From the NCBI GenBank assembly GCA_964432475.1, contig CAYSNN010000003.1, positions 7,297 through 39,936 on the forward strand: DNA of 32,640 bases, in the 5' to 3' direction. Positions 1 through 18,493 of the stretch are shown here, piece after piece. The stretch is from an uncultured Gammaproteobacteria bacterium. Its GTDB lineage: Bacteria; Patescibacteriota; Microgenomatia; Daviesbacterales; UBA10151. Position 1 is the first letter of the stretch; each line of letters starts with the position of its first letter. The position numbers were made by a program, and so were the translations under genes. The notes beneath the pieces were generated by a model. That model was given only the letters and a program-made list of their open reading frames with translations. It was not told the DNA's origin and ran no database searches.

Positions 1-1
1 A

Positions 2-820: not shown

Positions 821-823
821 ACC

Positions 824-2467
824 ATGTTTAAAATAGTTCAAACTCAAGTCCTGATATTAATTTTAGCTGCAGCCTTAATATTTAGGATTATAAATATTGA
901 CAGTAACCCACCCTCTATGTACGGAGACGAATTAACAATGGCACTGGATGTTAATTCAATACTCTACACAGGTTTTGACACGACAGGAAAATTCTTACCC
1001 TTAAACTTTATTATGGGAGGCGGCAGGCCTGTTGGATATGGTTATTTTTCGTTGCCTTTCATAGCAGTATTTGGGCCAGGCGCTTTAGGTATTAGGTTGT
1101 TATCTGTACTTTCCGGAATTGGAATAGTTTTACTAATTTATCTTTTAGGTAAATTACTTTTCTCAAAACAAGTAGGTTTATTTGCTGCATTACTGGTTGC
1201 TGTTTCTCCCTGGGATTTGTCTTTGAGCAGAGGCGGATTTGAGACGCATTTTGCCCTATTTTTAGCTCTTCTAGGAGTAGTGTTGTTTCTGATGGCTGAA
1301 AGAAAGCCTTGGTTTTATGTTATAGGCGCTTTAAGTTTTGGTTTAAGTATAAATACATATTCAACTTATAAGTTATCTTTACCTTTGTTAATACCTCTTT
1401 TAATGTGGTTTGCTAATTTTAAAGAGGTACTTTTAAGTATAAAGCACAGGTTTTATCTGATATTCTCAGTTTTTGTGTTGTCAATTTTTGTAATCTTACT
1501 TATGTTTCAGGCTTTCTTCGGGGCAAGCGAAACAAGATTTCTAAGTTTAAATATTTTTGCCCAAGGTGAAATCAGAGAGCAGATAATCCAAGCAATTAAT
1601 GAGCAAAGGAATTTAAGTTCAAACAGTAAAGAGTTATCAAAGCTTCTCCATAACAAATTCTGGGAATATGGATTTTTACTTCAGAAAAGTTATCTAAATA
1701 ATTTTTCTATAGACTTCTTATTTTTGACCGGCGACCGAAATCCGCGGCATAATATGGCCTCAAGCGGAAGTCTGTATCTTGCTCAAATAATTTTGTTACT
1801 TTTAGGTTTTGGACATCTATTTAAAAAGGAATATACAAAAAAAATAGTTTTTTTGGTAGGGTGGTTAGCTGTTGCACCTGTTGCCACATCGCTTTTACTT
1901 GAGACGCATGCCCTAAGGAGTTCTTTTATGCTGCCTCCTTTGACTTTGCTTTCTGCACTGGGATTATTTTATATATGGAATTTAAGAAGTATTTTAGCCA
2001 AAGGGGCTTTAGGAATTATTGCTTTAGGAATTATTATTCAATTTATAATTATTTGTGAAAATTTGTATTTTGTTTCTCCAAATAAATATTCGAGGTTTTG
2101 GTCATATCCTGCAAAAATGGCTTCCCAGATAGCAATTGACGAAAAAGAAAAATATGATTACATTTTTCTTTCTGATAGGATAGATGCTATTGAATTTGCT
2201 TATCCGGTGTATGCCCGGGTCCACCCCTTGAAAGTATTGGAACAAAACCAAAGACAGACAGAAATAAACGATAAATTATTTAGGAAATACGGAAATGTTT
2301 ATCTTGGTTCTATACCGGATAGTAGTGTTGGAAGCTTTTTAAAAAGTGTAAATGGTTCAATTCTATATATAGGTCCGGAGAGTGATTTAAAATACTTACA
2401 AGGATATGAAGTAGTTGAGGGTAAGGATAAATTAAAAGCCTTAGTGATTGAAAAATTAAAAAATTAA
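824..2467 (+). CDS. GT-C fold glycosyltransferase, GT39/ArnT/PMT_2-like (paralog A)
   Basis: 547-aa polytopic ORF. An N-terminal TM is followed by the loop NPPSMYGDELTMALDVNSILYTG..GKFLP (acidic DE motif typical of GT-C). It also has VSPWDLSLSRGG, FLFLTGDRNPRHN and ETHALRS, plus the C-terminal soluble module FWSYPAKM...YDYIFLS shared with the other paralogs. Confidence 0.8.
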   Translation: MFKIVQTQVLILILAAALIFRIINIDSNPPSMYGDELTMALDVNSILYTGFDTTGKFLPLNFIMGGGRPVGYGYFSLPFIAVFGPGALGIRLLSVLSGIGIVLLIYLLGKLLFSKQVGLFAALLVAVSPWDLSLSRGGFETHFALFLALLGVVLFLMAERKPWFYVIGALSFGLSINTYSTYKLSLPLLIPLLMWFANFKEVLLSIKHRFYLIFSVFVLSIFVILLMFQAFFGASETRFLSLNIFAQGEIREQIIQAINEQRNLSSNSKELSKLLHNKFWEYGFLLQKSYLNNFSIDFLFLTGDRNPRHNMASSGSLYLAQIILLLLGFGHLFKKEYTKKIVFLVGWLAVAPVATSLLLETHALRSSFMLPPLTLLSALGLFYIWNLRSILAKGALGIIALGIIIQFIIICENLYFVSPNKYSRFWSYPAKMASQIAIDEKEKYDYIFLSDRIDAIEFAYPVYARVHPLKVLEQNQRQTEINDKLFRKYGNVYLGSIPDSSVGSFLKSVNGSILYIGPESDLKYLQGYEVVEGKDKLKALVIEKLKN

Positions 2468-2468
2468 T

Positions 2469-3668
2469 ATGGATTATATAACGGCAAAAATCTTAAAAAA
2501 GAATAATATAATCTTTGTCGTTGTACTTTTTCTTCATCAACTTTTACAAAACTTTATACAAAGTAACCTTTCCCCAATCCATTATGCGAAAGTAGGCCTG
2601 TTTTTTTCGGAACTGCTTACTAATAGTCTGTTTATACCTCCCTGGTTATTAACTATTATAGAAATAGGAAATTTGTTTTTACTTTGGTTGATTAGTAAAA
2701 TAATTTTTCCGAAATACTCCATAATTGTCCCCATAATATATGTTATTTCACCATGGAGTAGTTACCTTTTGGTTGCAGGTTCTTTTTATATCTATATTCT
2801 TTTTTTATTGTTGCTTGGAGTTTATGGATTAATACTTTTAAAATCCAGTGAACATCTTGCTTTTAGAAGAAAAATATTGGGAAATATAGTAATAAGTGGT
2901 GCGTTACTGGTTATAGCGTATAGTTCGCTCACCCTGCTGCTTGTAATGCCTCTTTTTTTGTTGCTGCCTTATTTTAAAATAGTTTCTTTCAGGAACTTGA
3001 AACTTTCGTTTGTGATAATAACTATTTTATTTTTGCCTTTATTATTTTTGGTTCAAAGGAATACGATTGGTTTCAAAAATGTCTTAAATAATGAAATTAA
3101 AATTTTCTCTAATCCTGGTTTATTAAATATGGTTAACAGCTATAGGGGAGCAGCACAAGAAGAGGGTTTTGGCAAATTAGCTCAAATATCTGAGAATAAA
3201 TATATTGTTTATACCGAATATATATTACTAAAATATATCAAACAATTCAGCCCGAGCAGCTACTTCACTTCCGAAGAAAAACTTTTAAATTTTTCTTTTG
3301 CACCGCCAATTTTGTTAGGTTTTATAATTCCTCTTGTTTATAGTTTATATAAATTATTGAGGTCACCCCGCAGAAAACTGCTATTTTTATCTACTATTTT
3401 AGTTATTCCCGCCGTTTTGTCTGAAAGAATGGTTGATTTAAATCGCCTGATTATTTTTGCTCCAGTAATAATGATACTGATTTCTCATGGTGTAATAGAG
3501 TTACTCAAGCAAAAGAGAGAGAAAATTATATACTTTTTTTTAATGTTAACTTTGGTTTTGGTAACTCTTCAGTCTTTTGTTGTTTTGTTTGACATACAAC
3601 TTAGAGAAAAGGCAAGATTTAGCAAATATTACGAATATGAGAAAAATTATGAGGTAGGAAAACAGTGA
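2469..3668 (+). CDS. Truncated GT-C-paralog-like polytopic membrane protein; lacks the N-terminal DE loop and the C-terminal soluble module
   Basis: 399 aa, very hydrophobic. It retains ISPWSSYL (compare ISAWHI / VSPWDL), IFSNPGLLNMVNSYRGA (compare ITDDPGLVLRINENRGA in the 10429 gene) and QFSPSSYF (compare HFSPQFLF). It has no PPS..DE..DEWG loop and no WQYGY tail. It starts 1 nt after the stop of the upstream GT-C gene. Confidence 0.55.
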   Translation: MDYITAKILKKNNIIFVVVLFLHQLLQNFIQSNLSPIHYAKVGLFFSELLTNSLFIPPWLLTIIEIGNLFLLWLISKIIFPKYSIIVPIIYVISPWSSYLLVAGSFYIYILFLLLLGVYGLILLKSSEHLAFRRKILGNIVISGALLVIAYSSLTLLLVMPLFLLLPYFKIVSFRNLKLSFVIITILFLPLLFLVQRNTIGFKNVLNNEIKIFSNPGLLNMVNSYRGAAQEEGFGKLAQISENKYIVYTEYILLKYIKQFSPSSYFTSEEKLLNFSFAPPILLGFIIPLVYSLYKLLRSPRRKLLFLSTILVIPAVLSERMVDLNRLIIFAPVIMILISHGVIELLKQKREKIIYFFLMLTLVLVTLQSFVVLFDIQLREKARFSKYYEYEKNYEVGKQ

Positions 3669-5293
3669 ACAAAAAAATTCTTATTACTTTAATGCTCATA
3701 ATTACAATTTTGGGTGGATTTTTGAGATTTTATAAGAACACGGAAAATCCACCGAGTTTAAATGGAGATGAGATATCCTTTGGTTATACTGCTTACTCAA
3801 TATTAAAGACTGGTAGAGATGAATGGGGAAAGTTTTTACCGATTACTTTTCAAGCAGTCGGAGATTACAAAAATCCAGTTCCTGGATACATAATGATGAT
3901 ATCAATCAAGCTGTTTGGATTGAATGATTTTGCTGTAAGATTTCAGAATGCCTTCTTCGGGACACTGATGATTCCAATATTTTTTCTATTCTTAACCCGA
4001 GTACTAAAAGAACAATTACCAGCTTTAATTGGTTCTTTCTTTCTGTCTATTTCGGCTTGGCATATTTTTTATTCAAGAATGGAATATGAATATATTCTGG
4101 CCTCATTTTTTGTACTCCTTGGCATATGGTTTTTTATGAAAATGCTTGAAGGAGGTAAGCGTTGGGCTTTCTTTTCTGCTTTTTTCCTTATTCTTACAAT
4201 GTATACTGCTCCTGCCCCCCGTCTTTTTGTACCGTTATTTGTTATTGTGTTATTGATTTTCACTCTTTCTAAATTCAAAACAAGATGTGATAAGATAGTT
4301 ATCTTTATTACAACTTGTGTAATATTAGGGCTTCCGCTAACATATGCCACCTTATTTCAAGGTGCTGGTACCAGACTTTCAATGGTTCTAATCTCAAATG
4401 ATATAGAATTCCAACGATATGTCCTGCTGGAATCTGCCCGTTCTGTAGCTGATATCCCCTTATTAATACTTTTTTGGGTGAAGAGGTACCTAAACTATCT
4501 ACAGCCCAATTTTTTATTTATTAACGGTTTAAATGTTACAAACCCGAATACTTTTGGTTTAGGAATGCTATATATTTATGAGTTACCATTTCTAATTGTT
4601 GGAGTTTTCGAATTTATATATAGAAGGATTCCTCACAAAGCAATCTTTGTGATATGGCTTTTAACGGGGATTTTTCCTGATTCAATTACGAATAATCAAC
4701 AACATGCCGGAAGACTATTGCATATTGCCCCTGTAATTATTCTCATAATTACTTTAGGAGCAATAAAATCTTATAACTGGTTTATAAATCTTTCTAAATC
4801 CTATCTTAAAGTAATTATTGCTGGATGTTTCAGTCTTTTGGTAATTATAGTTATGATACATGCTTTTCTGACCATTGCGATTTATTTTCCTAGAGCTAAG
4901 GGTGAATCTTTCGATGAAGGGTTAAAACAGGCAGCTTTATATATACGAGACCACCAAGATAGCTATGATGAGATAATATTTGATCCACGTAGAGGAGTTG
5001 AGGGTCCGTATCTGGTGAGTAATCCATATCTCTATGTACTGTTTTACTCAAAATATGACCCCTTTACTTACCAGACAGAGCAAAAGATATCTAGTCAGGA
5101 TGCTACATACTTTTTTAAGTTTAATAAATATACCTTCAGAGAGATTGAATGGAATGAAGATCAAAGCAGAAAAGAAACATTATTTATTGGTAGCCCCTGG
5201 AGTTTCCCCAAAGATTTAAAGTCGGATGAAATATTGGAAAAGATCTATATGTCTTCCGGTTTACCAGCATATTACATAGTATCTCCAAAATGA
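3665..5293 (+). CDS. GT-C fold glycosyltransferase, GT39/ArnT/PMT_2-like (paralog B)
   Basis: GTG start overlaps the upstream stop (GTGA), with GAGG about 10 nt upstream. Motifs are NPPSLNGDEISFGYTAYSILKTGRDEWGKFLPITF, ISAWHIFYSR and YLQPNFLFINGL. The C-terminal module is FDEGLKQAALYIRDHQDSYDEIIFD...PYLYVLFYSKYDP. Confidence 0.8.
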   Translation: MNKKILITLMLIITILGGFLRFYKNTENPPSLNGDEISFGYTAYSILKTGRDEWGKFLPITFQAVGDYKNPVPGYIMMISIKLFGLNDFAVRFQNAFFGTLMIPIFFLFLTRVLKEQLPALIGSFFLSISAWHIFYSRMEYEYILASFFVLLGIWFFMKMLEGGKRWAFFSAFFLILTMYTAPAPRLFVPLFVIVLLIFTLSKFKTRCDKIVIFITTCVILGLPLTYATLFQGAGTRLSMVLISNDIEFQRYVLLESARSVADIPLLILFWVKRYLNYLQPNFLFINGLNVTNPNTFGLGMLYIYELPFLIVGVFEFIYRRIPHKAIFVIWLLTGIFPDSITNNQQHAGRLLHIAPVIILIITLGAIKSYNWFINLSKSYLKVIIAGCFSLLVIIVMIHAFLTIAIYFPRAKGESFDEGLKQAALYIRDHQDSYDEIIFDPRRGVEGPYLVSNPYLYVLFYSKYDPFTYQTEQKISSQDATYFFKFNKYTFREIEWNEDQSRKETLFIGSPWSFPKDLKSDEILEKIYMSSGLPAYYIVSPK

Positions 5294-5319
5294 TTTCAAT
5301 TTTAAATTATGCAAAAAAC

Positions 5320-5348
5320 TTGATACTCCTTTCAGTTCGTATTAAGAT
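5320..5348 (+). promoter_or_regulatory. Sigma70-like promoter candidate: TTGATA-17 nt-TAAGAT
   Basis: The -35-like TTGATA is at 5320-5325 and the -10-like TAAGAT at 5343-5348, with a 17-nt spacer. It sits in the only gap (62 nt) after a four-gene run. The -10 ends 7 nt before the ATG at 5356 and there is no SD. Confidence 0.35.
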
Positions 5349-5355
5349 TTAACCT

Positions 5356-6255
5356 ATGCCAAGAAAAATTTCAGCAGTAGTTAATACGCTTAATGAAGAG
5401 GCGAATATCGCTAGAGCAATTAAAAGCGTTAAGTGGTGTGATGAGATTCTAGTTTGTGACATGCACTCAGTTGATAAAACTGTTGAGATTGCTAAAAGTT
5501 TAGGAGCAAGAGTAGTCTTTCATGAAAAATTGGAGTTTGTAGAGCCAGCAAGAAACCTAGGTATTTCAGAAGCAAATGGTGAATGGATTTTAATCCTTGA
5601 TCCGGATGAGGAAATTCCTAACAGTTTGGCTGCTAAATTACAGCAAATTGCAGAAAGGATGCATGAAATAGATTATGTCAGATTGCCAAGAAAGAATCTG
5701 ATCTTTGGCAAGTGGATGAAGGCCTCAATGTGGTGGCCTGATTTTAATATCAGATTTTTTAGGAAAGGTAAAGTTGAGTGGACGGATAAAATTCATAGAC
5801 CCCCTCAAACCCAAGGTGTTGGGATAGATCTATCAGAAGATGAGCGATTATCGGTCATCCACCATCACTATGACTCAATTACGCAATTTCTAGAAAGAAT
5901 GAATAGGTATACTAAAATACAAGCAGAAGAGCTAGTCGAAGGTGGGTATAAATTTAATTGGGAGGACTTAATTAAAAAACCGTTGGGTGAATTTTTAGGA
6001 AGATTTTTTGCAAATAAAGGATATGCAGACGGAATACATGGGTTGGTTTTAAGCTTACTCCAATCCTTTTCATTTTTGATTGTTTATCTGCGTATCTGGG
6101 AGGCAGAAAAATTTAAACAAGAAGCTATTGATATGAAGGAACTTGAGGGTGTAAGCAAGCAGGCGAGAGAAGAGCTCCGGTATTGGTTTAAATTTATCAA
6201 TCTATCTAAAAATCCGTTTAAAAGATTTGTCCAAAAGGTGAAAGATAAAGTTTGA
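5356..6255 (+). CDS. GT2 glycosyltransferase, KdtX/WaaE-like subfamily (paralog 1 of 3)
   Basis: ISAVVNTLNEEANI (GT2 beta1), DKTVEIAKSLG and LILDPDEE (DxD-type motif). It also has the C-terminal helical region FLERMNRYTKIQAEEL and hydrophobic helices. It is preceded by a 62-nt gap with a promoter-like element. Confidence 0.8.
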   Translation: MPRKISAVVNTLNEEANIARAIKSVKWCDEILVCDMHSVDKTVEIAKSLGARVVFHEKLEFVEPARNLGISEANGEWILILDPDEEIPNSLAAKLQQIAERMHEIDYVRLPRKNLIFGKWMKASMWWPDFNIRFFRKGKVEWTDKIHRPPQTQGVGIDLSEDERLSVIHHHYDSITQFLERMNRYTKIQAEELVEGGYKFNWEDLIKKPLGEFLGRFFANKGYADGIHGLVLSLLQSFSFLIVYLRIWEAEKFKQEAIDMKELEGVSKQAREELRYWFKFINLSKNPFKRFVQKVKDKV

Positions 6256-6267
6256 GAGAAGGCAAAA

Positions 6268-7086
6268 ATGTTAAGTGTAATAGTACTTACAAAAAACGAA
6301 GAAAGCAGAATAAAAGCTTGTTTTGAGTCTGTTAAGTGGGCTGATGAGATTATATTAGTGGATAACGGGTCCTCAGATACGACTTTAGAAATAGCTAAAA
6401 AATATACAGATAAGATATTTTCATTTGAAAATCAAGATTTTGCAGCTTTCAGGAATGAAGCCTTTAAGAAAGCCTCAGGTGACTGGGTACTATACCTTGA
6501 TCCTGATGAGAGAGTATCACAAGGCCTTAGGGAGGAAATCGAGCAAATTATTAATAATGAGGAATTCGCAGCTTATGCTATTTCTAGGAAAAATATTATT
6601 TTTGGGCAGATGGTAAAATACGGGCCGTTTTGGCCGGATTGGGTTATTCGATTATTGAAAAAGAGCGATTTTGAAAATTGGGTAGGTAAAGTTCATGAAT
6701 ACCCCAAGTTTAAGGGTAAACTGGGGTTTACGAAGAATTCTTTGATACACCTAACACACCGTAACCTGGATCAAATTGTTTTAAAAAGTTTAGAGTGGTC
6801 AAAAATCGATGCAAAATTAAGAATAGATTCTCATCATCCTAAGATGTCCGGATGGAGATTTTTGAGGATTTTCCTTTCTGAAACATTCAAGCAAGGTGTA
6901 TTAAGAAAAGGTTTTCTTAACGGTACAGTGGGGATTATGGACTCCATGCTCCAGGTTTTCTACATGTACATTACCTATATTAGATTATGGGAAATGCAGC
7001 AGCCTATCTCTCTTGATAAAACTTATGATGAAATTGATAAAGCTTTAATAGAAAGTTCTTTTAGCCTAGATAGTCTAAAAAAATGA
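6268..7086 (+). CDS. GT2 glycosyltransferase, KdtX/WaaE-like subfamily (paralog 2 of 3)
   Basis: LSVIVLTKNEESRI, VDNGSSDTTLEIAKKY and LYLDPDER. It is collinear with the 5356 and 17719 products. GAGAAGG lies upstream of the ATG. Confidence 0.8.
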   Translation: MLSVIVLTKNEESRIKACFESVKWADEIILVDNGSSDTTLEIAKKYTDKIFSFENQDFAAFRNEAFKKASGDWVLYLDPDERVSQGLREEIEQIINNEEFAAYAISRKNIIFGQMVKYGPFWPDWVIRLLKKSDFENWVGKVHEYPKFKGKLGFTKNSLIHLTHRNLDQIVLKSLEWSKIDAKLRIDSHHPKMSGWRFLRIFLSETFKQGVLRKGFLNGTVGIMDSMLQVFYMYITYIRLWEMQQPISLDKTYDEIDKALIESSFSLDSLKK

Positions 7087-8156
7087 AGACTGCAATCTAC
7101 TCCCCTTATTTAGATACATTTGGTGGTGGTGAGAAGTATATGATGACTATAGCTGAAGTTTGTTGTCAGGCTGGTTATAAAGTTGATGTACTTTTGAGTA
7201 ATCATTTAAACAGTTTAGGTCCGGAGTTATTAAGAAAGCAGTTATCAGAGAGATTTAATTTAGATCTTTCAAACGTAAATTTTATTAAGGCTCCAATAGG
7301 GAAAGGATCAAATTTATTTAATAGACTCTTTTTTCTCAAAAATTATGACAGCTTTTTTTATTTAACTGATGGAAGTATTTTTATTTCAACCGCGGATAAA
7401 AATATTTTACATATTCAGACTCCCCTTGTAGGCCAACCGGCTAAAAGTATTTGGGGTAAAATCAAGCTGAAGTTTTGGAATTTAATTATCTATAATTCAC
7501 AGTTTACTAAAGCAAACTCTGATAAGAATTGGCCGCTCTCATCTGAGGTGGTTTTTCCTCCGGTTGATATTGATAAAATCAAGCCTCTGCAGAAGAAAAA
7601 TTATATACTTTCTGTGGGTAGATTTTTTGGTTACTTGAAAGATAAAAAGCATGAATTGATGATTAAAACTTTCAAAAAATTAGTTGAAACTAAAAGAATT
7701 GTCGGCTGGAGTTTAAATTTAGTTGGTTCGGCAAATAGCGGAGACGAACCATATTTAATGCAGTTGAAAAGTTTGGCAAAAGGATTACCTATAAATTTTT
7801 ATCCCAATTTAAGCTATGATGATTTAGTCAAGTTGTACGGACAATCCTCTATTTATTGGCATGCCTCAGGATTTGGGGAAAATGAGCCAACAAAAATGGA
7901 GCATTTCGGTATTGCTACTGTAGAGGCAATGGCAGCAGGTTGTGTGCCTGTTGTAATAAGGAAAGGCGGACAAATAGAAATTGTAGGTGCAGGCAGCGGT
8001 TTTTTATGGAACGATCCGGGTGAGTTTCAGGAATACACCATGAAAGTTATTTCAGATAAAGCCTTAAGAGAAAAAATTGGAAAAAAGGCAATTGAGAAAA
8101 CAAGGCTTTTTTCGAAAAAGAATTTTAAAGAAAAAATATTAGAGGTTTTAAGATGA
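7083..8156 (+). CDS. GT4 (Glycos_transf_1) glycosyltransferase, ALG11-like by motif
   Basis: ATGA overlap with the upstream gene. The N-terminal YSPYLDTFGGGEKYMMTIAEV and the EX7E region EHFGIATVEAMAAGCVPVVIRKGGQIEIV resemble ALG11-type alpha-mannosyltransferases. This comparison is from memory, not a search. Confidence 0.7.
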   Translation: MKTAIYSPYLDTFGGGEKYMMTIAEVCCQAGYKVDVLLSNHLNSLGPELLRKQLSERFNLDLSNVNFIKAPIGKGSNLFNRLFFLKNYDSFFYLTDGSIFISTADKNILHIQTPLVGQPAKSIWGKIKLKFWNLIIYNSQFTKANSDKNWPLSSEVVFPPVDIDKIKPLQKKNYILSVGRFFGYLKDKKHELMIKTFKKLVETKRIVGWSLNLVGSANSGDEPYLMQLKSLAKGLPINFYPNLSYDDLVKLYGQSSIYWHASGFGENEPTKMEHFGIATVEAMAAGCVPVVIRKGGQIEIVGAGSGFLWNDPGEFQEYTMKVISDKALREKIGKKAIEKTRLFSKKNFKEKILEVLR

Positions 8157-9625: not shown

Positions 9626-10362
9626 TGGGAAATCCTAAGGTATTAATTGTTATGCCTGCATATAATGCAGAGAAAACCCTGATTGATACATATTATGAGA
9701 TTCCGAGTAAGTTCCGTCATAATATTATTGTTGTTGATGATCAAAGTAAGGATAAAACAGTCGAGATTGCCAAAAGTTTGGGAATTAAGGTTTATACTCA
9801 CACCAGTAATCTAGGATATGGGGGAAACCAAAAAACTTGCTACCAGCAAGCCCTAAAATTAAATACCGACATAGTAGTAATGCTACATCCTGATTATCAA
9901 TATGATGCTAGTCTGATTGAGGAACTTATTAGGCCGATAACGCAGGGCAGGTATGATTTTATGTTTGGTTCAAGGATTCAAAATAAAGAAGGGGCCTTGA
10001 GAGGAGGAATGCCGAAGCTTAAATATTATATTAATCGTCTAACTTGTATAATTGAAAATATATTACTAGGAGTTAATTTTACCGAACACTTTTCGGGTTT
10101 TAGGGCTTATTCCGTCAGTGTGCTTAAAAAGGTACCTTTTGAGAAGTTTTCAAATGATTTTGTCTTTGATCAGCAGATGGTGATGTCAGCGCTAAGTTGT
10201 GACTTCAGAATTGGAGAGATAGCTATTCCAACAAGATATCATGATAAAGCTTCATCTATACAATTTATAAAAGGAACAAAATTCCTTCTGCAAACTTTTT
10301 GGACAATATTTCTTTTTCAACTCCATCAATCAGGATTAATAAGAAGCAGGTTTTTTAAGTAA
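9625..10362 (+). CDS. GT2 glycosyltransferase, DPM1/GtrB-like (putative polyprenyl-phosphate sugar synthase)
   Basis: TAATG one-nt overlap with the upstream gene. Motifs are VLIVMPAYNAEKTL, VVDDQSKDKTVEIAKSLG, MLHPDYQYD, GSRI...GGMPKLKYYINRLT, HFSGFRAYS and a hydrophobic C-terminal helix. Confidence 0.7.
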   Translation: MGNPKVLIVMPAYNAEKTLIDTYYEIPSKFRHNIIVVDDQSKDKTVEIAKSLGIKVYTHTSNLGYGGNQKTCYQQALKLNTDIVVMLHPDYQYDASLIEELIRPITQGRYDFMFGSRIQNKEGALRGGMPKLKYYINRLTCIIENILLGVNFTEHFSGFRAYSVSVLKKVPFEKFSNDFVFDQQMVMSALSCDFRIGEIAIPTRYHDKASSIQFIKGTKFLLQTFWTIFLFQLHQSGLIRSRFFK

Positions 10363-10428
10363 TCTACTGATAATTTTCCGCTAATATAGCTTTTCTTATC
10401 TTAAATTGCTAACATTAATTTACAACTA

Positions 10429-12087
10429 ATGATGAAAACTACAAAATATCTAGTTTTTATACTAATAATCTTACTTGCGTTTTTTTTGAGACTTCATAAG
10501 GTAACTGAGATACCGCCATCTTTAAACTGGGATGAGGTTTCCATAGGTTATAATGCTTATTCTATTTTAAAAACAGGAAAGGATGAATGGGGTAAATTCT
10601 TCCCAATTCATTTTAAATCTTATGGGGAGTATAAGTTACCTGTTCAAATTTATTTATCAATTCCGGGAATCTACTTTTTTGGTTTGAATGAAATCGGTGT
10701 CAGAATTACACCTGTAATTTATGGAACCTTGACAGTCTTAATAATGTTTTTTTTAGGAAGGGCCCTTTTCCAAAGCTTTGTAGCCGGTCTAATATCTGCA
10801 TTTCTTCTTGCTATATCCGCCTGGCATATCCAACTGACAAGGGCTTCTTTTGAATCTTCGCTGGCTACTCTTTGGATCGTTTTGGGGATATGGTTTTTTG
10901 TTAAGGGTTTTAGAAGTCAGAAGTGGTTTGTTTTTGCAATGATACCGTTTGCATTATCTGTTTTTACTTATAATACGGCAAGGTTTTTTACTCCGCTATT
11001 TGTCATAGTAATTTTTTTGTTATATTACAAAAAGCCTGGGGGATTTAGAAAAGTATTGATACTTTCAGTAATAAGTTTTGTTATTTTGCTTTTACCGCTA
11101 ACACCGTTTTTACTTTCAGGAGAAAGGAGTGCAAGATATAAATTGGTAAGTATCACTGATGATCCGGGGTTAGTATTAAGAATAAATGAAAACAGGGGTG
11201 CCTCCAGCCTCCCCCAACCCTTACCCCGTTTGATACACAACAAAGTAAGTTATGTTAGTTTTTATTTTGCAAAAAACTACCTACTGCATTTTAGTCCACA
11301 ATTTTTATTTGTATCGGGGGCTCCACACAAGCAACATCATGTGCAAAACATGGGACAACTCTATTATTTTCAGGCACCCTTTCTGATATTAGGTTTATGG
11401 GGTCTGTTTAAATTCAAGAATAAATTTAAGGGCCTACTTTTATCATGGGTGCTTCTCGCCTTTATTCCGGTTTCTGCCACAAATGACAGTATACCTCATG
11501 CTTTAAGAACACTGATAGCAGCGCCTTTCTATCAGTTTATTTCAGCATATGGATTTTTGTGTTTTCTAAAATGGTCAAAAAGAATTCATAAAGTTATAAA
11601 TATTTCATTATCAGCAATACTAATCATTATAGTGATTAGTAGTATTAACTTTTACTTAAATCAGTATTACAATATCTATCCCAAAGTCTATTCAAGAGAT
11701 TGGCAGTATGGTTATAAGGAAGTTGTAGGGTATATAGCAGAGCATAAAGATGAATATGATCAAATTATTTTTTCAAGGCACTTCGGCGAGCCGCATATGT
11801 TTACTCTTTTCTATTTAAACTATGATCCGGCTAAATATCAAAAAGATCCTACTTTAGTAAGATTTGAAACACATGATTGGGTTAGGGTACTAAGATTCAA
11901 CAAATACTATTTTCCTGATTTAGGTGATGAAGGCACTAAGTTTGATGATGTTGTAAAAGAAAATCCGGGCAAGAGACTACTATTTATTGGAAAAATGGGT
12001 GATTTCCCAAAAGATATGCACAGGCTTTTTACTGTTGATTTTCTTGACGGTAAAAGAGCCTTTGAAGTTGTAGAAGTAAAGCCCTAG
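10429..12087 (+). CDS. GT-C fold glycosyltransferase, GT39/ArnT/PMT_2-like (paralog C)
   Basis: IPPSLNWDEVSIGYNAYSILKTGKDEWGKFFPIHFKSYGEYKLP, ISAWHIQLTR, HFSPQFLFVSG and IPHALRT. The C-terminal module is RDWQYGYKEVVGYIAEHKDEYDQIIFSRHFGEPHMFTLFYLNYDP. Its stop TAG (12085-12087) overlaps the stop of the convergent gene. Confidence 0.85.
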   Translation: MMKTTKYLVFILIILLAFFLRLHKVTEIPPSLNWDEVSIGYNAYSILKTGKDEWGKFFPIHFKSYGEYKLPVQIYLSIPGIYFFGLNEIGVRITPVIYGTLTVLIMFFLGRALFQSFVAGLISAFLLAISAWHIQLTRASFESSLATLWIVLGIWFFVKGFRSQKWFVFAMIPFALSVFTYNTARFFTPLFVIVIFLLYYKKPGGFRKVLILSVISFVILLLPLTPFLLSGERSARYKLVSITDDPGLVLRINENRGASSLPQPLPRLIHNKVSYVSFYFAKNYLLHFSPQFLFVSGAPHKQHHVQNMGQLYYFQAPFLILGLWGLFKFKNKFKGLLLSWVLLAFIPVSATNDSIPHALRTLIAAPFYQFISAYGFLCFLKWSKRIHKVINISLSAILIIIVISSINFYLNQYYNIYPKVYSRDWQYGYKEVVGYIAEHKDEYDQIIFSRHFGEPHMFTLFYLNYDPAKYQKDPTLVRFETHDWVRVLRFNKYYFPDLGDEGTKFDDVVKENPGKRLLFIGKMGDFPKDMHRLFTVDFLDGKRAFEVVEVKP

Positions 12088-13670
12088 AGCGTATAAAAGT
12101 AAAACGCAGGTTTAAAGCTGGGTAAGGTGATAGTATAAATTTTTTGAAGATTTGAATTTTGCTCAGGTGCATTAGAAACGGGTACAATATACAGATTTCC
12201 TGTTTCTAACTTTTCTTTATCCCAATTAATATTTCTGATCTGGTATTTATCAAAGTAAGCCCCTGATTTTTCCCGCCTGCTCCCCAGTAATTTATAGGGA
12301 TTTAAAATAGTATAGTAAGGGATGTACAAATGAGGAAGCCCAGAATACATATTTGCCGGGCCAAATCGGGGATCGATAATAATTTGGTTAAACTCATGAT
12401 ATTTCGGTTTAATAAAAAGCGCCATCTGTTTATAACCATATTGGAAACCTTGGGCGGAATCTTTTGGAAAGTGATAATAGAAAATTGCTAAAAAATACAA
12501 GAAAGAAACAGTTAAAACAGTTGTAAAAATAATTTTCCAACTATTTTTGGCAGATTTCCAGAATATAAGTATTCCAGCAGCGCTGATGATTGAGATAGAA
12601 ATTAAACTGACTAAGTTTCTTGATGTGCTTTGAGGGCCGGAGGTAAGTGAGGCTGTGAACGGTGACGTAATTAAGAAAATATAAATGAACCTTGAATTTT
12701 CTTGAAATAACGTCGCTACTCTGCATAGTCCAATTAGGAAGAATGGAAGGAGGGGAAATAGAAATACCCCTACCTGGAATGGATCTCCTTTAGGCAATAG
12801 AAAATAGCCGGTAAAAAATAAATAAGAAAGATTGAAATAAGATGAGTATTTATCCAGGAAAGCTTGAATAATCAAAGAGCCTTTCTGCCATATATACAAA
12901 TTAGTATCTTCCAACCTTTGTGCTAAATGAGGCTCCTTTAATAAATTTTCCGTATTTGCCCTGGTTGAAGAATGTAAATTGTTTAAAAAGTCTAAAAAGA
13001 TTGGAATAATAAGAAGAATAAATAATAATATTCCAATATAATATTCCGGTTTTTTGAAAATTGCCTTATAATTCATTACAGAGAGTAAAATGATAATAAA
13101 GGGGGTGAAAACCCACTCTGTATGATAGCCATATATAGATAAAGCAAATGAAATAAAGCTTAATAAAGGTATAAAAAGATTATTCTTTCGCAGGCCCAAG
13201 AAAAATAAATAAATTCCCAGTATAAAAAAGAATAAGGCTATATTAGACTCATAGGCCATATGAGAGGTTAGAATATGCATAGGGGAGAGTGCGAGAACAA
13301 AAGAACTAACGAGTCCCAAGTATTTGTTTTTGGATAATTCAAATACCAGTAGGCCTAAAACAAGAACTGTCAGACTGCCTAAAAAGGCAGAAGGTAATCT
13401 GGCAGCAATTTCGCCATTGCCCAAAATAATTGTAGTAGGAACAGAAAGATAAATAGCTAAAGGCGCTTTATAAGTGCTATGTGATTGAAAGGATAGAGGC
13501 AAAAAGTTATTATGCTCATCTCGAAGTGTTTTTGATACGGAATATGCATCATAGGCAATAGAAATCTCATCATTTCCCAGATTAGGGGGTATACTACTTA
13601 ATCCTACAAATCTTGTAAGTATTGTTATAATTGCAACTAAAATTACCCAGAAGAAAAAATTAAATTTCAT
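12084..13670 (-). CDS. GT-C fold glycosyltransferase, GT39/ArnT/PMT_2-like (paralog D)
   Basis: IPPNLGNDEISIAYDAYSVSKTLRDEHNNFLPLSFQSHSTYKAP and LSPMHILTSH. The C-terminal module is GFQYGYKQMALFIKPKYHEFNQIIID. I prefer the ATG at 13670 (MKFNFFFWV...), which forms an ATGA overlap with the upstream gene's stop, over the track's start at 13709. Confidence 0.8.
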   Translation of the reverse strand: MKFNFFFWVILVAIITILTRFVGLSSIPPNLGNDEISIAYDAYSVSKTLRDEHNNFLPLSFQSHSTYKAPLAIYLSVPTTIILGNGEIAARLPSAFLGSLTVLVLGLLVFELSKNKYLGLVSSFVLALSPMHILTSHMAYESNIALFFFILGIYLFFLGLRKNNLFIPLLSFISFALSIYGYHTEWVFTPFIIILLSVMNYKAIFKKPEYYIGILLFILLIIPIFLDFLNNLHSSTRANTENLLKEPHLAQRLEDTNLYIWQKGSLIIQAFLDKYSSYFNLSYLFFTGYFLLPKGDPFQVGVFLFPLLPFFLIGLCRVATLFQENSRFIYIFLITSPFTASLTSGPQSTSRNLVSLISISIISAAGILIFWKSAKNSWKIIFTTVLTVSFLYFLAIFYYHFPKDSAQGFQYGYKQMALFIKPKYHEFNQIIIDPRFGPANMYSGLPHLYIPYYTILNPYKLLGSRREKSGAYFDKYQIRNINWDKEKLETGNLYIVPVSNAPEQNSNLQKIYTITLPSFKPAFYFYTL

Positions 13671-14491
13671 ATCTTGGGACTGATATAAATAAAGAAGCTC
13701 AAGGCCCAAAAAAATAAATAGATTTTTTTATTGACACCTTGTGCTCCAACCAGTATTAAATAAAGCAGTAACGGTCCCAAAAGATAAAGTGACTGAAATT
13801 TATCGGGTGATCTATCAATTCCTGCAGTTAACATAGTTACAGAAAAAGTAGTTATAAAGAAGAATTTCAATTTATCCTTTTCTGTGAAAATTTTATATAT
13901 GCCGGTAAATAAAAGATATAAATTAGCAAGAATTAATACCTCATAAAGATTTTTTAAATTTAAGAAATCAAAAAAATTTGTAAGAGCAGCATAGATATAA
14001 ATTGTCTCGGAATAAAACAGTTGCCGAACTTTATACGGAAGAAAAAGGGCATCCTGTTGATGTTGGTTAAGATATAAATTTACTTCCGGAGAATTAAAGA
14101 TTAATTGTGAGTCCTGTAAACTAAAAGGGTATTTAATTACCTCACTTAAATAAAGGTGTCCAAAGAAGATATAAATTATCCATATAATAATGAGATATTT
14201 ATTTGGTTGCTTAATATAAAGGTAGATCAAAATCAGAGCTGCTAAAGGGAGAACTGCGAAAAGATTAGGATCCGGTTGGTAAGAGAAAATTGGCATAAGT
14301 CCCAGTGATATTAAAAGGAAATTATTAAACGTATTGTTTTTTAAAGCTAAATAGTTTTGAAAAAGCAAAATTGATAATCCTAAGGCAAGGCTATTGATTA
14401 ATGAAGTAAATAGGCTGTGGTGAGAAAAATAATTTACAAACAAGCACACTAAAGATGCGATAATAATAGTAAGTAATAGACTGCGGTGCAT
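13667..14491 (-). CDS. Truncated GT-C-paralog-like polytopic membrane protein (no DE loop, no C-terminal module)
   Basis: 274 aa and hydrophobic. LIFNSPEVNLYLNQ, LFYSETIYIYAALTNFFDFL and the following helices are collinear with the middle part of the 2469 product and of the full-length paralogs. It is translationally coupled (ATGA) to paralog D. Confidence 0.5.
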   Translation of the reverse strand: MHRSLLLTIIIASLVCLFVNYFSHHSLFTSLINSLALGLSILLFQNYLALKNNTFNNFLLISLGLMPIFSYQPDPNLFAVLPLAALILIYLYIKQPNKYLIIIWIIYIFFGHLYLSEVIKYPFSLQDSQLIFNSPEVNLYLNQHQQDALFLPYKVRQLFYSETIYIYAALTNFFDFLNLKNLYEVLILANLYLLFTGIYKIFTEKDKLKFFFITTFSVTMLTAGIDRSPDKFQSLYLLGPLLLYLILVGAQGVNKKIYLFFWALSFFIYISPKI

Positions 14492-14527
14492 GATATGATT
14501 ATATTGTTGTCTTATGCCTAAGTCTAT
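14476..14527. promoter_or_regulatory. Mirror-symmetric divergent promoter pair with overlapping -10 elements
   Basis: On + : TAGACT (14477-14482), 17 nt, TATATT (14500-14505), then ATG 14514. On - : TAGACT (complement of 14521-14526), 17 nt, TATAAT (complement of 14498-14503), then ATG at 14491. The 7-bp inverted repeat ATAGACT (14476-14482) / AGTCTAT (14521-14527) is centred on the shared -10 block. Confidence 0.4.
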
Positions 14528-16124
14528 ACCGCGATTGTTGTTTTCTGCGAGATTTTTTATGGGTTTAATATGCTTATTTTTTTTATTAACCCGTATTTAT
14601 AATCTCGATAAGATCCCACCTTCTTTATATTGGGATGAAGCCTCGATTGCATATAATGCTTATTCAATTTCTCGGACTGGTAAAGATGAATGGGGGGAAT
14701 TTTTACCGATTCATTTTAGGGCTTTTGGTGAGTTTAAGTTACCTATCTATATTTATACCACCGCAATTTTCGTAAAACTAATAGGACTGAATGAGTATGC
14801 AGTCAGGCTACCGGCAATTTTATTTTCGCTTCTAACAATAATTATTACTTTTTTCTTGGCTAAAGAGCTTTTTAAAGACAGTAAAATTGCTTTACTTAGC
14901 GCTTTTTTTCTATCCATATCTCCTTGGTGGTTTATCTTTACCAGGGTGGGATATGAGGCATCTGCGGGGTTAATGTTTTTTATGTTAGGTGTTTACCTAA
15001 TGCTTAAGGCGCTACGGAAAAGGTTCCTAGTATTATTTGCAGTTTTTGCTTTTATTTTTAGTATCTATAGTTATAATAGCTTTCGGGTACTTGTTCCGAT
15101 AACTTTATTACTTTTTCTTTTCCTGCATGCATACTCTTCTAAAAAAAGTTTTCTTCTATTCTGTGGCGCATTGATTATTTTTGTAATTAGTTTAGCTCCC
15201 ATTGCTAGACTATTAATCTTCGATGCAGGTTTTGGGAGAGTTCAATCTTTTGTTCTGCTCCCCACAATCCAACAAGTCTATGATTTATCCGGTAAACCAC
15301 GTCTGCAACTAATCTTTGACCGTAGCGGACCAACTGATTGGAGTAAAAATGTTTGGGGCATATTTAATAACTACCTGGTTCACTTTAGTCCTTCTTTTCT
15401 ACTTTTTGACGGAGATACAAACCCAAGGAATCATCCGGCAGGATCGGGCCAATTTTTTTTGCCGGATCCAGTTTTGATATTGCTGGGGATATTCATTATT
15501 AAAAGAAAGAAAAAACGATTGCTTTATCTACCGATAATGTTTGTGTTGTTAGGGCCTGTTCCTGCAGTCTTATTTAGAGAATCTCCTCATGCACTTAGGT
15601 CATTGGCGATAGTTCCTTTTCTTTGTATGGTTATGGGAGCAGGAGCAAGTGCAATTTCAGATTACTTTAAAAAATCTACAATTTTGATAATTATTGTTTA
15701 TTCTTCCTTCTTTGCGTATTTCTTCCATAATTTTATTACCCGTTATCCTGTGCAATCATCTCAGGATTGGCAGTATGGTTATAGAAGGTTATTTATAGAT
15801 TATAAAGATAGTTTTGATAATTTTGATAAAGTTATTATTTCTGATGAATACGCCCAGCCTTATATCTTTGCTTTGTATAATTTAAAATATAATCCTGAAA
15901 AATTCAAAGAGGAAGTTAAACATAATGATATTAATAATTGGGGTTTTTCCACTGTATCAGCATTTGGCAATTTTGAATTTAGAAAAATAGCCAAAAATGA
16001 TTTTGACTTAAAAAAAACTTTAATCTTTGCAAGCTCAATTGATAAATCAGATACAAAAGACTCACAGGCTCAAATTAAATTTCTTAATGGTGAAACTGCT
16101 TTTTGGGTGTACAATTTGTATTAA
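14514..16124 (+). CDS. GT-C fold glycosyltransferase, GT39/ArnT/PMT_2-like (paralog E)
   Basis: IPPSLYWDEASIAYNAYSISRTGKDEWGEFLPIHFRAFGEFKLP, ISPWWFIFTR, HFSPSFLLFDGDTNPRNH and SPHALRS. The C-terminal module is QDWQYGYRRLFIDYKDSFDNFDKVIISDEYAQPYIFALYNLKYNP. Confidence 0.85.
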   Translation: MPKSIPRLLFSARFFMGLICLFFLLTRIYNLDKIPPSLYWDEASIAYNAYSISRTGKDEWGEFLPIHFRAFGEFKLPIYIYTTAIFVKLIGLNEYAVRLPAILFSLLTIIITFFLAKELFKDSKIALLSAFFLSISPWWFIFTRVGYEASAGLMFFMLGVYLMLKALRKRFLVLFAVFAFIFSIYSYNSFRVLVPITLLLFLFLHAYSSKKSFLLFCGALIIFVISLAPIARLLIFDAGFGRVQSFVLLPTIQQVYDLSGKPRLQLIFDRSGPTDWSKNVWGIFNNYLVHFSPSFLLFDGDTNPRNHPAGSGQFFLPDPVLILLGIFIIKRKKKRLLYLPIMFVLLGPVPAVLFRESPHALRSLAIVPFLCMVMGAGASAISDYFKKSTILIIIVYSSFFAYFFHNFITRYPVQSSQDWQYGYRRLFIDYKDSFDNFDKVIISDEYAQPYIFALYNLKYNPEKFKEEVKHNDINNWGFSTVSAFGNFEFRKIAKNDFDLKKTLIFASSIDKSDTKDSQAQIKFLNGETAFWVYNLY

Positions 16125-16126
16125 AA

Positions 16127-17722
16127 ATGAAAAGATCTGTCAAAATTGCCTTTATATTAGTAATCCTGCTGGCAGCATTTTTAAGGATTTACAAGTTAGA
16201 TCAGCTTCCTCCGGGACTAAATTGGGATGAAGCTGCAGCCGGGTATAATGCCTACACAATAGCTAACTGGAGAAAAGATGAATGGGGACAATCTTTTCCA
16301 TTGGTTTTTACCTCTTTTAGAGATGATAAACATCCTGTTCATATCTATATAACTGCCATATTTGTAAAATTTCTTGGTTTATCAGATTTTACTACGAGAT
16401 TGTCCGGAGCAACGATTGGAGTACTTAGTGTAATACTAATCTTTTATCTAGCTAGGGTGCTATTTAAGAGTGATTTAGCAGCACTGTTCTCAGCGCTATT
16501 TTTAGCAGTTTCTCCGTACCATCTTCAATTTTCAAGAGGGCTTTGGGAAGTAAACTTTGCGCTTTTTTTCTTCATGTCGGGACTTCTGTTTTTTTATCTG
16601 GCATTGGAAAAGAAAGGTTGGCTAATAAATATATCATTTTTAAGCTTTGGTCTTAGTATGTTTGCTTATCATTCTTCAAAAATTGTAGTTCCGCCGATAA
16701 TCCTGCTGCTTTGCATTGTTAATTTTAAGAATCTGAAAGCATCAAAAAATTTTTACAGCGGCCTATTTATTTTTCTAATTTTTATAGTCCTTATGATTAT
16801 AGATCCAAGATTATTTGGAACAGCCAGAATGAAACAGACTCAACAAAATCAAGAAGATTTTGAAAAAACAGCCACTTATAAAGTTACAAAAAATTATAAT
16901 TTGGCCAAAGGAGAAAAATTGATTAAAAACTACTTAAGCCACTTTACTCCCCGGTATTTATTTTTAGCAGGAGATCAGAGCCCAAGGAATTCAGTTAAGA
17001 CCCGTGGAGAATTCTACAAAATTGACGCGCTTTTTATATTAATGGGACTTTTCTATTTATTAAAATTAAGATCAAAAGTTACATTGATAATATTAGCCTG
17101 GCTATTTATATCACCTATTCCTGCCAGTTTGGTTGGAGGTTCACCCAGTGCTACCAGAGCTATTTTCATGATGGGAAGTATTTATCTTATTTCAGCTTAT
17201 GGAGCAAGTAAACTGTTAGGATTAATAAAAGGAAGAGCAAAAATATTAATTGTTATTATTCTCTTAAGTTTACTTGCATACGAGACACACTCTTACCTGT
17301 ATTATTACTTTAATATATATTCAAAGAAAGAACCTACAGATTGGCAATATGGTATGAGACAAGTTGTAGAGTATGTAAAGACTCATCCCGGATATCAGAC
17401 AATTTATATGACTGAGGAGAGGTCGCAACCGTATATTTTTTTCCTGTTTTACCTGAAAGAATCCCTGCCTGATTTTATAAATACCGTGATGTATAACCGT
17501 TGGGATAGTAAGAGTTATAAATATAATACTGTTTCCTCTTTTGATAAATATTATTTCGGCGGCTGGGATACAGTTGAGAGTTATCCCACCACTAACGTAT
17601 TATATGTACTTACACCAAGTCAGTATGATGGGTTAAGACATCGGGCTCAATTTGATGTCAAAAAGATTATCCAGCTTCCTGATGGAGGCAATGCATTCTA
17701 TTTAGTAAGTGCAAGAAAATGA
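16127..17722 (+). CDS. GT-C fold glycosyltransferase, GT39/ArnT/PMT_2-like (paralog F)
   Basis: LPPGLNWDEAAAGYNAYTIANWRKDEWGQSFPLVF, VSPYHLQFSRG and HFTPRYLFLAGDQSPRN. The C-terminal module is TDWQYGMRQVVEYVKTHPGYQTIYMTEERSQPYIFFLFYL. I prefer the ATG at 16127 (MKRSVKIAF), 2 nt after the upstream stop, over the track's GTG at 16103. Confidence 0.85.
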   Translation: MKRSVKIAFILVILLAAFLRIYKLDQLPPGLNWDEAAAGYNAYTIANWRKDEWGQSFPLVFTSFRDDKHPVHIYITAIFVKFLGLSDFTTRLSGATIGVLSVILIFYLARVLFKSDLAALFSALFLAVSPYHLQFSRGLWEVNFALFFFMSGLLFFYLALEKKGWLINISFLSFGLSMFAYHSSKIVVPPIILLLCIVNFKNLKASKNFYSGLFIFLIFIVLMIIDPRLFGTARMKQTQQNQEDFEKTATYKVTKNYNLAKGEKLIKNYLSHFTPRYLFLAGDQSPRNSVKTRGEFYKIDALFILMGLFYLLKLRSKVTLIILAWLFISPIPASLVGGSPSATRAIFMMGSIYLISAYGASKLLGLIKGRAKILIVIILLSLLAYETHSYLYYYFNIYSKKEPTDWQYGMRQVVEYVKTHPGYQTIYMTEERSQPYIFFLFYLKESLPDFINTVMYNRWDSKSYKYNTVSSFDKYYFGGWDTVESYPTTNVLYVLTPSQYDGLRHRAQFDVKKIIQLPDGGNAFYLVSARK

Positions 17723-18489: not shown

Positions 18490-18493
18490 GAAG

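Follow-up and report, generated by a model that had tools for sequence, protein, structure and literature searches.

The window analysed here, a stretch of 32,640 nucleotides from contig CAYSNN010000003.1 (30-36% GC, nearly all coding, 28 open reading frames (ORFs) of at least 150 aa), carries an array of six full-length, mutually diverged glycosyltransferase paralogs of the GT-C fold class. We named them A (824), B (3665), C (10429), D (12084, minus strand), E (14514) and F (16127), and all residue numbers refer to C. Our results showed that A-F belong to a large uncharacterised GT-C subfamily and do not appear to be bona fide members of GT39/PMT, ArnT or STT3. By sequence comparison the six paralogs are ancient duplicates. 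The recurrence of six old, specialised copies across relatives of groundwater Daviesbacteria suggests that they together build a cell-surface glycan. The array is a solid observation, and its function is inferred.

What is new is a subfamily whose C-terminal domain is unmatched and which, in a minimal-genome lineage, has divided into at least six conserved orthogroups. Two of these are strictly paired with relatives without the catalytic loop. The presence of the genes in public genomes (auto-named GT39), the enzyme class and its general logic were already known, and the array is not a new principle. In full-text literature on candidate phyla radiation bacteria (CPR), Patescibacteria or Microgenomates together with GT-C or glycosylation, no paper describing or characterising these arrays was found.

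Six paralogs, their conserved residues and their orthogroups

The first-pass annotation had reported six ORFs that are collinear over their whole length, and alignment and BLASTP bore this out from end to end (Table 1). The longest ORF of F begins with TTG at 16103, inside E, and the likelier start is ATG 16127 (531 aa), which is the coordinate originally given. The ORF of D begins with TTG at 13709. Its likelier start is ATG 13670 (528 aa), which directly follows the stop of the minus-strand ORF upstream and agrees with a 526-aa ortholog (72% identical) in a Microgenomates genome (locus L004/L008, below L004). With these starts the six proteins span 528-552 aa. The array is operon-like, with overlapping gene stops and starts.

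Table 1. Genes of the array and its surroundings, with orthologs counted among the 58 full-length related loci. Gathering cut-offs are 26.1 bits for Pfam PMT_2 (PF13231) and 22.7 bits for Pfam PMT (PF02366).
Feature	Position	Strand	Length (aa)	Loci with ortholog (of 58)	Remarks
Paralog A	824..2467	+	547	29	PMT_2 43.1 bits
Truncated family paralog	2469..3668	+	399		no Pfam match; stop overlaps start of B
Paralog B	3665..5293	+	542	13	PMT_2 27.4, PMT 24.3 bits; start overlaps stop of upstream truncated paralog
GT2	5356..6255	+			Pfam Glycos_transf_2; predicted cytoplasmic
GT2	6268..7086	+			Pfam Glycos_transf_2; predicted cytoplasmic
GT4	7083..8156	+			Pfam Glycos_transf_1; predicted cytoplasmic
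Paralog G, seventh PMT_2 GT-C	8153..9625	+	490		PMT_2 56.7 bits; other subfamily, without C-terminal module
GT2, polyprenyl-phosphate-sugar synthase type (AglJ/PpgS/DPMS-like)	9625..10362	+			start overlaps stop of G
Paralog C	10429..12087	+	552	57	PMT_2 28.5, PMT 37.0 bits; most conserved, array anchor
Paralog D	12084..13709	-		4	opposite strand; PMT_2 38.1, PMT 25.2 bits
Probable second truncated relative	13667..14491	-	274		collinear with C residues ~141-383 (TM4-TM10)
Paralog E	14514..16124	+	536	51	PMT_2 48.8 bits; PMT 17.9 bits (below cut-off)
Paralog F	16103..17722	+		55	PMT_2 52.0, PMT 23.6 bits
GT2 after F	17719..18489	+		57	Pfam GT2
GT4	18494..19564	+		52	Glycos_transf_1 114.7 bits
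PIG-V/Mannosyl_trans2-like GT-C	19561..20724	+	387	49	PF04188 34 bits, above cut-off
Wzx-type polysaccharide flippase	20712..21983	+		33	Polysacc_synt_3 and Polysacc_synt
GT2, polyprenyl-phosphate-sugar synthase type	21943..22749	+			candidate lipid-linked donor maker
GT4	from 24316
GalE-like short-chain dehydrogenase/reductase	25441..26439	-			nucleotide-sugar gene
RmlD-like reductase	28932..29825	+			189 bits versus cut-off 224
GT2, PgfS/ArnC-like	29750..30505	-			matches below curated cut-offs
Nucleotide-sugar dehydrogenase (Ugd-like)	30587..31954	+			above subfamily cut-off
NUDIX hydrolase	31947..32444	+			weakly like GDP-mannose mannosyl hydrolase

In all-vs-all BLASTP the pairwise identity among A-F was 26-35%, and the E-values ranged from 3e-16 (A-D) to 6e-80 (C-E); A and C, for example, share 31% identity (E 7e-50), and B and C share 35% (E 4e-79). 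The strongest DNA similarity among the genes covers 191 nt of the region coding for the first external loop. It reaches just 63-70% identity, so there has been no recent gene conversion. Two short repeats reported earlier were also recovered. The 11-mer GATGAATGGGG occurs only at 3818, 10582, 14685 and 16277 (expected 0.05), and a 19-mer occurs at 11698 and 15765 and nowhere else (expected 0).

The shared motifs were less general than first described. DEWG is present in B, C, E and F, but A has DTTG and D has DEHN in its place. GDxNPR is found in A, E and F but not in the other three paralogs, and in B, D and F only the invariant arginine of HALR is left. The acidic GT-C-type motif stood without exception. 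This DE motif follows the first transmembrane helix (TM1); D35 and E36 are kept in all six paralogs and in 96-98% of 370 family relatives, and D52 is conserved in 99% of these relatives. The residues invariant in A-F and conserved at 94-100% in the relatives are D35, E36, D52, P59, Y75, R92, E142 and R360. Position 69 (K69) is basic in all six (R in A). Because the catalytic-type residues are kept in all six and in their relatives, none of the paralogs looks degenerate, and from these residues A-F all look catalytically competent.

One explanation would be that composition alone, in AT-rich and hydrophobic ORFs, produces the shared motifs. The low GC content of the window (30-36%) and the very hydrophobic proteins would fit it. 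However, the composition-corrected BLASTP E-values go down to 6e-80, the Pfam gathering score is passed, the model has a confident GT-C fold and there are thousands of homologues. Since the similarity has E-values of 3e-16 to 6e-80 over the full length, it is not compositional, and we give this explanation practically no weight.

The distribution of the array was obtained from one genome per GTDB species, with a C-centred alignment as the query. A relative was encoded in 433 stretches, and the best 80 were analysed; they come from Daviesbacteria, Woesebacteria, Shapirobacteria and other Microgenomates. The nearest database proteins are likewise from metagenome-assembled genomes of Candidatus Daviesbacteria and other Microgenomates (Patescibacteria/CPR). 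Each of the 80 species carries 1-7 members of the family (mostly 4-7) in the ±10 kb around its C ortholog. The array is no peculiarity of this genome but a syntenic feature of Microgenomates throughout the lineage. No locus has more than one clear ortholog of each paralog. By best-hit classification, C has a clear ortholog in all 80 loci, F in 67, E in 57, A in 34, B in 13 and D in 4.

In a neighbour-joining tree of 110 sequences (200 bootstraps) each paralog fell in its own orthogroup, with support of 100% for A, B and D, 99.5% for F and 96.5% for both C and E; E and F are sister orthogroups (72.5%). Since each orthogroup was recovered, the duplications predate the radiation of this class. 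Consistently, orthologs are 40-76% identical across the relatives (50-74% for C) versus 26-35% between paralogs. L004 keeps the gene order of the window, with orthologs of B (76%), C (73%), D (72%), E (68%) and F (76%). Recent duplication or gene conversion was rejected, since the DNA identity is at most about 70% over 191 nt and orthologs are far closer than paralogs. The proposal of old duplicates kept side by side is thus upheld by the well-supported orthogroups and by ortholog identities of 68-76% against 26-35% between paralogs. The separate conserved orthogroups also support the proposal that the paralogs are specialised. The retention of such diverged copies argues for the specialisation of each, as far as sequences can tell. 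Some positions are fixed within orthogroups but differ between them (beside K69-P71, in GDxNPR of the long external loop and in the C-terminal domain), which is consistent with altered substrate recognition.

C, E and F are always adjacent and in fixed order, and in Woesebacteria the usual order is A-C-E-F. The core, C-E-F-GT2-GT4-PIG-V-like-Wzx-GT2, is found in about 50-57 of 58 species loci. Around C-E-F the other paralogs (A, B, D and G) and the unclassified members look like a variable periphery. This outer part of the array could be a variable cassette that diversifies the decoration of a surface glycan between strains, for example in phage evasion or host attachment. Orthogroups A, B and D occur in just 29, 13 and 4 of the 58 loci. 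The A slot of L004 holds a different, 613-aa family member that is at most 31% identical to any window paralog, 114 of the 370 family members near C fall in none of the six orthogroups, and G with its GT2 looks inserted relative to L004. We regard such a cassette as possible, though we lean against it: the core of C, E and F is near-universal and fixed in order, so a cassette explains only the periphery and is compatible with the assembly line proposed below.

Putative truncated partners and further GT-C genes

The count of six GT-C genes was right for A-F, but it overlooked a seventh PMT_2 protein (G), two truncated paralogs and a PIG-V-like GT-C. The first truncated paralog, directly upstream of B, aligned with the family profile by hhalign at 99.8% (E 1.7e-30; 99.5% with a 62-sequence alignment) and is collinear with C residues 76-423. 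It is without the whole catalytic first loop (D35, E36, D52, K69 and Y75) and without the C-terminal domain, and R92, R138 and E142 are replaced. Its homologues form 62 clusters, mostly of 382-399 aa, with their own strongly conserved polar motifs. Because length and motifs are kept in these clusters, pseudogene decay does not explain it. Every locus with a clear B ortholog (12 loci) has such an ORF directly upstream and on the same strand, and the truncated protein is probably a non-catalytic partner subunit of B. An origin from B itself was not supported, since its similarity to the different orthogroups is about equal and its top score is to A.

The second truncated ORF, upstream of D, is a probable relative of the family by profile comparison. 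It aligned with the pooled family at 96% and 93.8% (hhalign, E 4e-9 and 1.7e-7) and weakly with single-orthogroup profiles. Its homologues form 36 clusters without a Pfam match. All four loci with a D ortholog have an ORF of this type directly upstream of it.

Such pairing raises another reading, in which the paralogs are subunits of one or a few hetero-oligomers, as in Pmt1-Pmt2 or EmbA-EmbB, and their number reflects the composition of a complex and not the number of reactions. EmbA-EmbB is a further GT-C hetero-complex, and the solved GT-C heterodimer Pmt1-Pmt2 (6p25) is among the structural matches of C. The strict pairing of B and D with truncated paralogs that lack the catalytic loop and the constant adjacency and fixed order of C-E-F would also fit. 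However, all six paralogs keep the complete set of catalytic-type residues, and each is probably active itself. We consider this reading improbable.

G aligned with the A-F family at 99.7% (hhalign). With the overlapping GT2 gene that follows, it forms a self-contained, translationally coupled two-gene module. L004 is otherwise syntenic but has no such module at this place; the module thus looks inserted into the array.

Fold and family placement

The structure of C was modelled with AlphaFold2 from an alignment of 30 sequences, with a mean predicted local distance difference test score (pLDDT) of 85.6 and a predicted template modelling score (pTM) of 0.86. When the model was compared with the PDB by Foldseek, all 31 matches at E<=1e-3 were GT-C enzymes, with TM-scores by query (TMq) of 0.44-0.54 for full-length matches. 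STT3 and AglB head the list, which also holds PglB, ArnT, Pmt4, Pmt1/2 (6p25), ALG9, ALG12, DPY19 and AftD. The gathering score of Pfam PMT_2 was passed by all six paralogs. Because the matches are all GT-C yet the TM-scores are only about 0.5, the modelled fold makes the assignment of the family to the GT-C fold, class A, secure, without a close solved relative. The earlier assignment of the GT-C fold was therefore confirmed.

The label GT39/ArnT fared less well: the resemblance is one at the level of the superfamily only. Pfam PMT was passed marginally by B, C, D and F, was below cut-off in E and gave no match in A. At E<=0.01, none of the six had a Pfam match to PMT_4TMC or MIR. When the PDB was searched at E<=1 with a profile of the six paralogs, only ArnT (E 3e-5, over TM2-TM7) and one STT3 chain came up, and no PMT chain. 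The curated models were far from reached. The NCBIfam ArnT equivalog PRK13279 matched E alone, at 15.8 bits against a cut-off of 567. STT3 had no Pfam match in A-F and reached 20 bits with TIGR04154 (cut-off 450), and Agl23 (TIGR03663, cut-off 126) reached at best 40.7 bits with F and 40.4 with B. The Emb/Aft arabinosyltransferases had no Pfam match in A-F, and their Foldseek E-values were 6e-4 to 1e-2 with TM-scores by target (TMt) of 0.22-0.38. Without PMT_4TMC or MIR, with marginal PMT scores and with curated models far below cut-off, GT39 is a superfamily-level label. Database orthologs nevertheless carry the automatic name 'glycosyltransferase family 39 protein'. At E<=1e-30 the six-paralog profile retrieved 6,461 cluster representatives (50% identity), a number that rises to 16,755 at E<=1e-10.

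The C-terminal ~125 aa (11689-12084 in C, and the equivalent part in the other paralogs) form a soluble alpha/beta domain, which reached a pLDDT of 91.8 when modelled alone. It had no Pfam match, its best structural match in the PDB was just E 0.18, and by these Pfam and PDB structure searches it resembles no known peptide-binding module. The candidate DWQYGY after the last transmembrane helix was rejected as an equivalent of the STT3 motif WWDYG, because it is absent in A and B and the isolated domain is unmatched in the PDB. From the helices of the model we infer about 11 transmembrane helices per paralog and a cytoplasmic N-terminus. The first loop (residues 25-87) would then lie on the outer face, as would E142, a long and partly disordered loop (~231-312), the HALR arginine and the C-terminal domain.

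A putative assembly line for a surface glycan, and the surrounding genes

Known GT-C enzymes use polyprenyl-(pyro)phosphate-linked sugar donors and act at the non-cytoplasmic face of the membrane. We think it probable that A-F are catalytically competent, mutually specialised enzymes of an assembly line that builds a glycan outside the cytoplasm and depends on polyprenyl-phosphate-sugars. The GT2 enzymes at 21943, 9625 and 29750, which resemble dolichol-phosphate mannose synthase (DPMS), GtrB and ArnC, would produce the donors on the cytoplasmic side. Cytoplasmic GT4 and GT2 enzymes would begin the glycan on a lipid carrier or anchor, and the Wzx-type flippase would then export it. Outside, the GT-C series would extend and decorate it, with C, E, F and the PIG-V-like protein as core enzymes and A, B, D and G as accessory ones. 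Each paralog would use a polyprenyl-phosphate-monosaccharide and pass the single sugar to an extracytoplasmic acceptor, and the catalytic loop of the paralogs after TM1 (PPSLxWDE...DEWG...KxP...Y) would face outward. The paralogs would differ in the step that they catalyse on the way to one cell-surface glycoconjugate, be it by linkage, sugar or acceptor position. In analogy to the dimeric PMTs and Emb proteins, B and D may each work with their own truncated paralog, in which the catalytic residues are lost and which is probably a non-catalytic subunit of a heteromer. This is the most economical reading because the paralogs are non-redundant, co-conserved, in fixed order and intact, and lie beside donor synthases, GT4 genes and a flippase.

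The surrounding genes agree with such a role. Almost every gene of the window is related to glycosylation, among them six GT2 and three GT4 genes, and many encode polytopic membrane proteins. The Wzx flippase and the DPMS-like GT2 follow the core wherever the related locus extends far enough; the flippase gene lies near the edge of the compared loci. The GT2 at 21943 matched DPMS (5mlz, E 3.5e-15), GtrB (5ekp, E 6e-12) and ArnC (E 2e-6) in the PDB and has a 79% identical ortholog in L001, another Daviesbacteria genome. The GT2 at 9625 matched AglJ (4e-21) and PpgS (4e-15) in NCBIfam, both below cut-off, and DPMS (5mlz, 3e-6) in the PDB. The nucleotide-sugar genes at the right end hint, from their sequences, at donor sugars and are too unspecific to name them. 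A pathway like that for 4-amino-4-deoxy-L-arabinose (Ara4N), from the genes at 30587, 25441 and 29750, was rejected: the matches are generic, and no aminotransferase or formyltransferase is present in the window.

Several observations weigh against an assembly line. Every GT2 match to a named polyprenyl-phosphate glycosyltransferase model is below the curated cut-off. No initiating phosphoglycosyltransferase of the WecA or WbaP type was found in the window or within ±10 kb in L001 and L004. As many relatives lack A, B or D, a complete series is not required, and the family relationship of the truncated ORF upstream of D is no more than probable. The GT2 conserved next to F has GmaR (2.9e-18) and SunS (1e-10) as its top solved relatives in the PDB, which are protein/peptide glycosyltransferases, and it fits protein glycosylation equally well.

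This last resemblance belongs to another reading, in which the paralogs are several PMT-like protein O-glycosyltransferases, each modifying other surface proteins (S-layer, pilins or adhesins), and do not build one chain. B, C, D and F score above the Pfam PMT cut-off, the structural matches include Pmt4 and Pmt1/2, and the flippase weakly matches an 'O-glycosylation flippase' model; the lack of a phosphoglycosyltransferase within ±10 kb in L001 and L004 would fit as well. However, the PMT scores are marginal (24-37 bits), PMT_4TMC and MIR are missing, the family profile retrieves no PMT chain from the PDB at E<=1, and the C-terminal domain is unlike any known peptide-binding module. The ordered co-conservation with two GT4 genes, the PIG-V-like GT-C and Wzx is more typical of glycan building. 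We therefore consider protein O-glycosylation rather unlikely.

The PMTs (GT39; Pmt1/2/4 and bacterial Pmt) share with A-F the DE motif of the first external loop, the marginal Pfam PMT passes of 4 of the 6 and the structural matches of Pmt4 and Pmt1/2. PMTs work in dimeric form, which may be comparable with the pairing of B and D with truncated paralogs. In contrast, the present proteins have no PMT_4TMC or MIR and no profile match to PMTs, and the structural alignments with Pmt1/2 span just ~260 columns.

ArnT (GT83; 5ezm/5f15), the undecaprenyl-phosphate-L-Ara4N:lipid A transferase, is similar in profile (E 3e-5), in structure (Foldseek TMq 0.53, TMt 0.55), in size (~550 aa) and in its C-terminal soluble domain on the outside. 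The signature of the first loop (DE...Y.A...G.W...K-P) is of the same type as the published motif of ArnT. However, the equivalog score is 15.8 versus 567 bits, and the C-terminal domain of the present family alone matches no solved structure. There is also one gene in the ArnT system versus six or more paralogs here. CPR bacteria are not known to have lipid A.

The proposed way of working has its best analogue in the mycobacterial set (aftA-embC-embA-embB, AftB/C/D, MptA/B, PimE, Ppm1 and PimA/B). In the pathways of lipomannan, lipoarabinomannan and arabinogalactan, GT-C enzymes, some of them tandem paralogs, use polyprenyl-phosphate-sugars outside the membrane to extend a glycan begun by GT4 enzymes, and a DPM1-like GT2 makes the donor. 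AftD, EmbC and AftB are among the structural matches of C. The differences are that these matches are weak and from Foldseek only (E 6e-4 to 1e-2), that Pfam arabinosyltransferase models do not match, that the phylum is another one and that the proteins have ~540 aa here versus 600-1400 there. The mycobacterial aftA-embC-embA-embB genes are characterised tandem GT-C paralogs, and this precedent makes the earlier description of the Emb/Aft genes as dispersed inaccurate.

The luminal enzymes ALG3/9/12/6/8/10 are also a diverged GT-C series, each adding one sugar from a dolichol-phosphate-sugar to a flipped lipid-linked glycan, and ALG9 and ALG12 are structural matches of C (E 3e-5 to 6e-5). However, they are eukaryotic, dispersed over the genome and members of other CAZy families. 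A pyrophosphate-linked oligosaccharide or an oligosaccharyltransferase is not in evidence here. The three-component modules (GtrA/GtrB/GtrC, CsbB/YfhO, ArnC/ArnEF/ArnT and S. mutans Pgf) follow the same logic of GT2 synthase, flippase and GT-C. G with the GT2 at 9625 is a two-gene module of this kind, and PgfS-like and ArnC-like GT2 matches occur in the window. In contrast, a single GT-C decorates a pre-existing polymer in those modules, whereas the present array has 4-7 co-conserved paralogs and was not seen to include a small flippase of the GtrA type.

CPR bacteria have shed most biosynthetic capacity, and this lineage nonetheless keeps a block of 20-30 kb dense with membrane glycosyltransferases. 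The six paralogs take ~10 kb. Measured against the chromosomes of the relatives (0.80-1.08 Mb), this is an estimated 1% or so. Through such a conserved and ordered set of specialised GT-C enzymes, the envelope chemistry of CPR bacteria becomes accessible to concrete tests. Small enzymes (~540 aa) of one scaffold and presumably different specificities also form a natural series for studying donor and acceptor choice. If confirmed, the strict pairing of B and D with loop-less relatives would give the GT-C class a case of pseudo-enzyme subunits. More tentatively, as an idea we find doubtful but worth stating, Microgenomates, which are ultra-small bacteria with genomes of ~0.8-1 Mb, may share an ancient extracytoplasmic glycan factory. 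It would comprise a new GT-C subfamily with at least six functionally distinct orthogroups, two of them obligate heteromers with loop-less pseudo-enzymes. Its product would be a lineage-characteristic envelope lipoglycan or glycoprotein coat, possibly central to an attachment-dependent lifestyle.

Among the other genes, the run GT2-GT2-GT4 at 5356-8156 has orthologs that are 54-68% identical and keep their order in L001 and L004. The GT2 proteins of 17719-18489, 5356-6255 and 6268-7086 are mutual paralogs (30-35% identical), with GmaR (flagellin O-GlcNAc transferase) and SunS (peptide S-glycosyltransferase) as solved relatives. Two large polytopic membrane proteins of 508 and 638 aa are encoded at 22785-24311 and 27003-28919 (both +). 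They had no Pfam or NCBIfam match at relaxed thresholds and no homologue in the 80 loci, and their hhalign scores to GT-C were at noise level. A small secreted or membrane protein with DUF5667 (26513-27001, +) lies directly upstream of the 638-aa protein.

Only 22 bp (14492-14513) separate the divergent ORF at 13667-14491 (-) from E, and promoter-like sequences TAGACT...TATAAT/TATATT lie on both strands there (14477-14526), overlapping the gene starts. A promoter and terminator scan of 1-18600 gave no enrichment over shuffles.

Loci L006, L010, L012, L013 and many other 'binchicken' metagenome-assembled records are 60-73% identical to the array. They are titled 'uncultured Gammaproteobacteria bacterium', and these organism names look like placeholders or mislabels.

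At the left end, 1-820 (+) encodes the C-terminal ~270 aa of a ~672-aa polytopic protein that runs off the window and is 73% identical to L004 588-2606. It scored 17 bits with chlor_Arch_YYY (cut-off 300) and 68% with the GT-C family by hhalign, and it may be GT-C-like. In L001 (1-1159, -) and L002 (1-1270, -) a YfhO-family GT-C of 791-828 aa flanks the array, so the neighbourhood gathers further GT-C classes.

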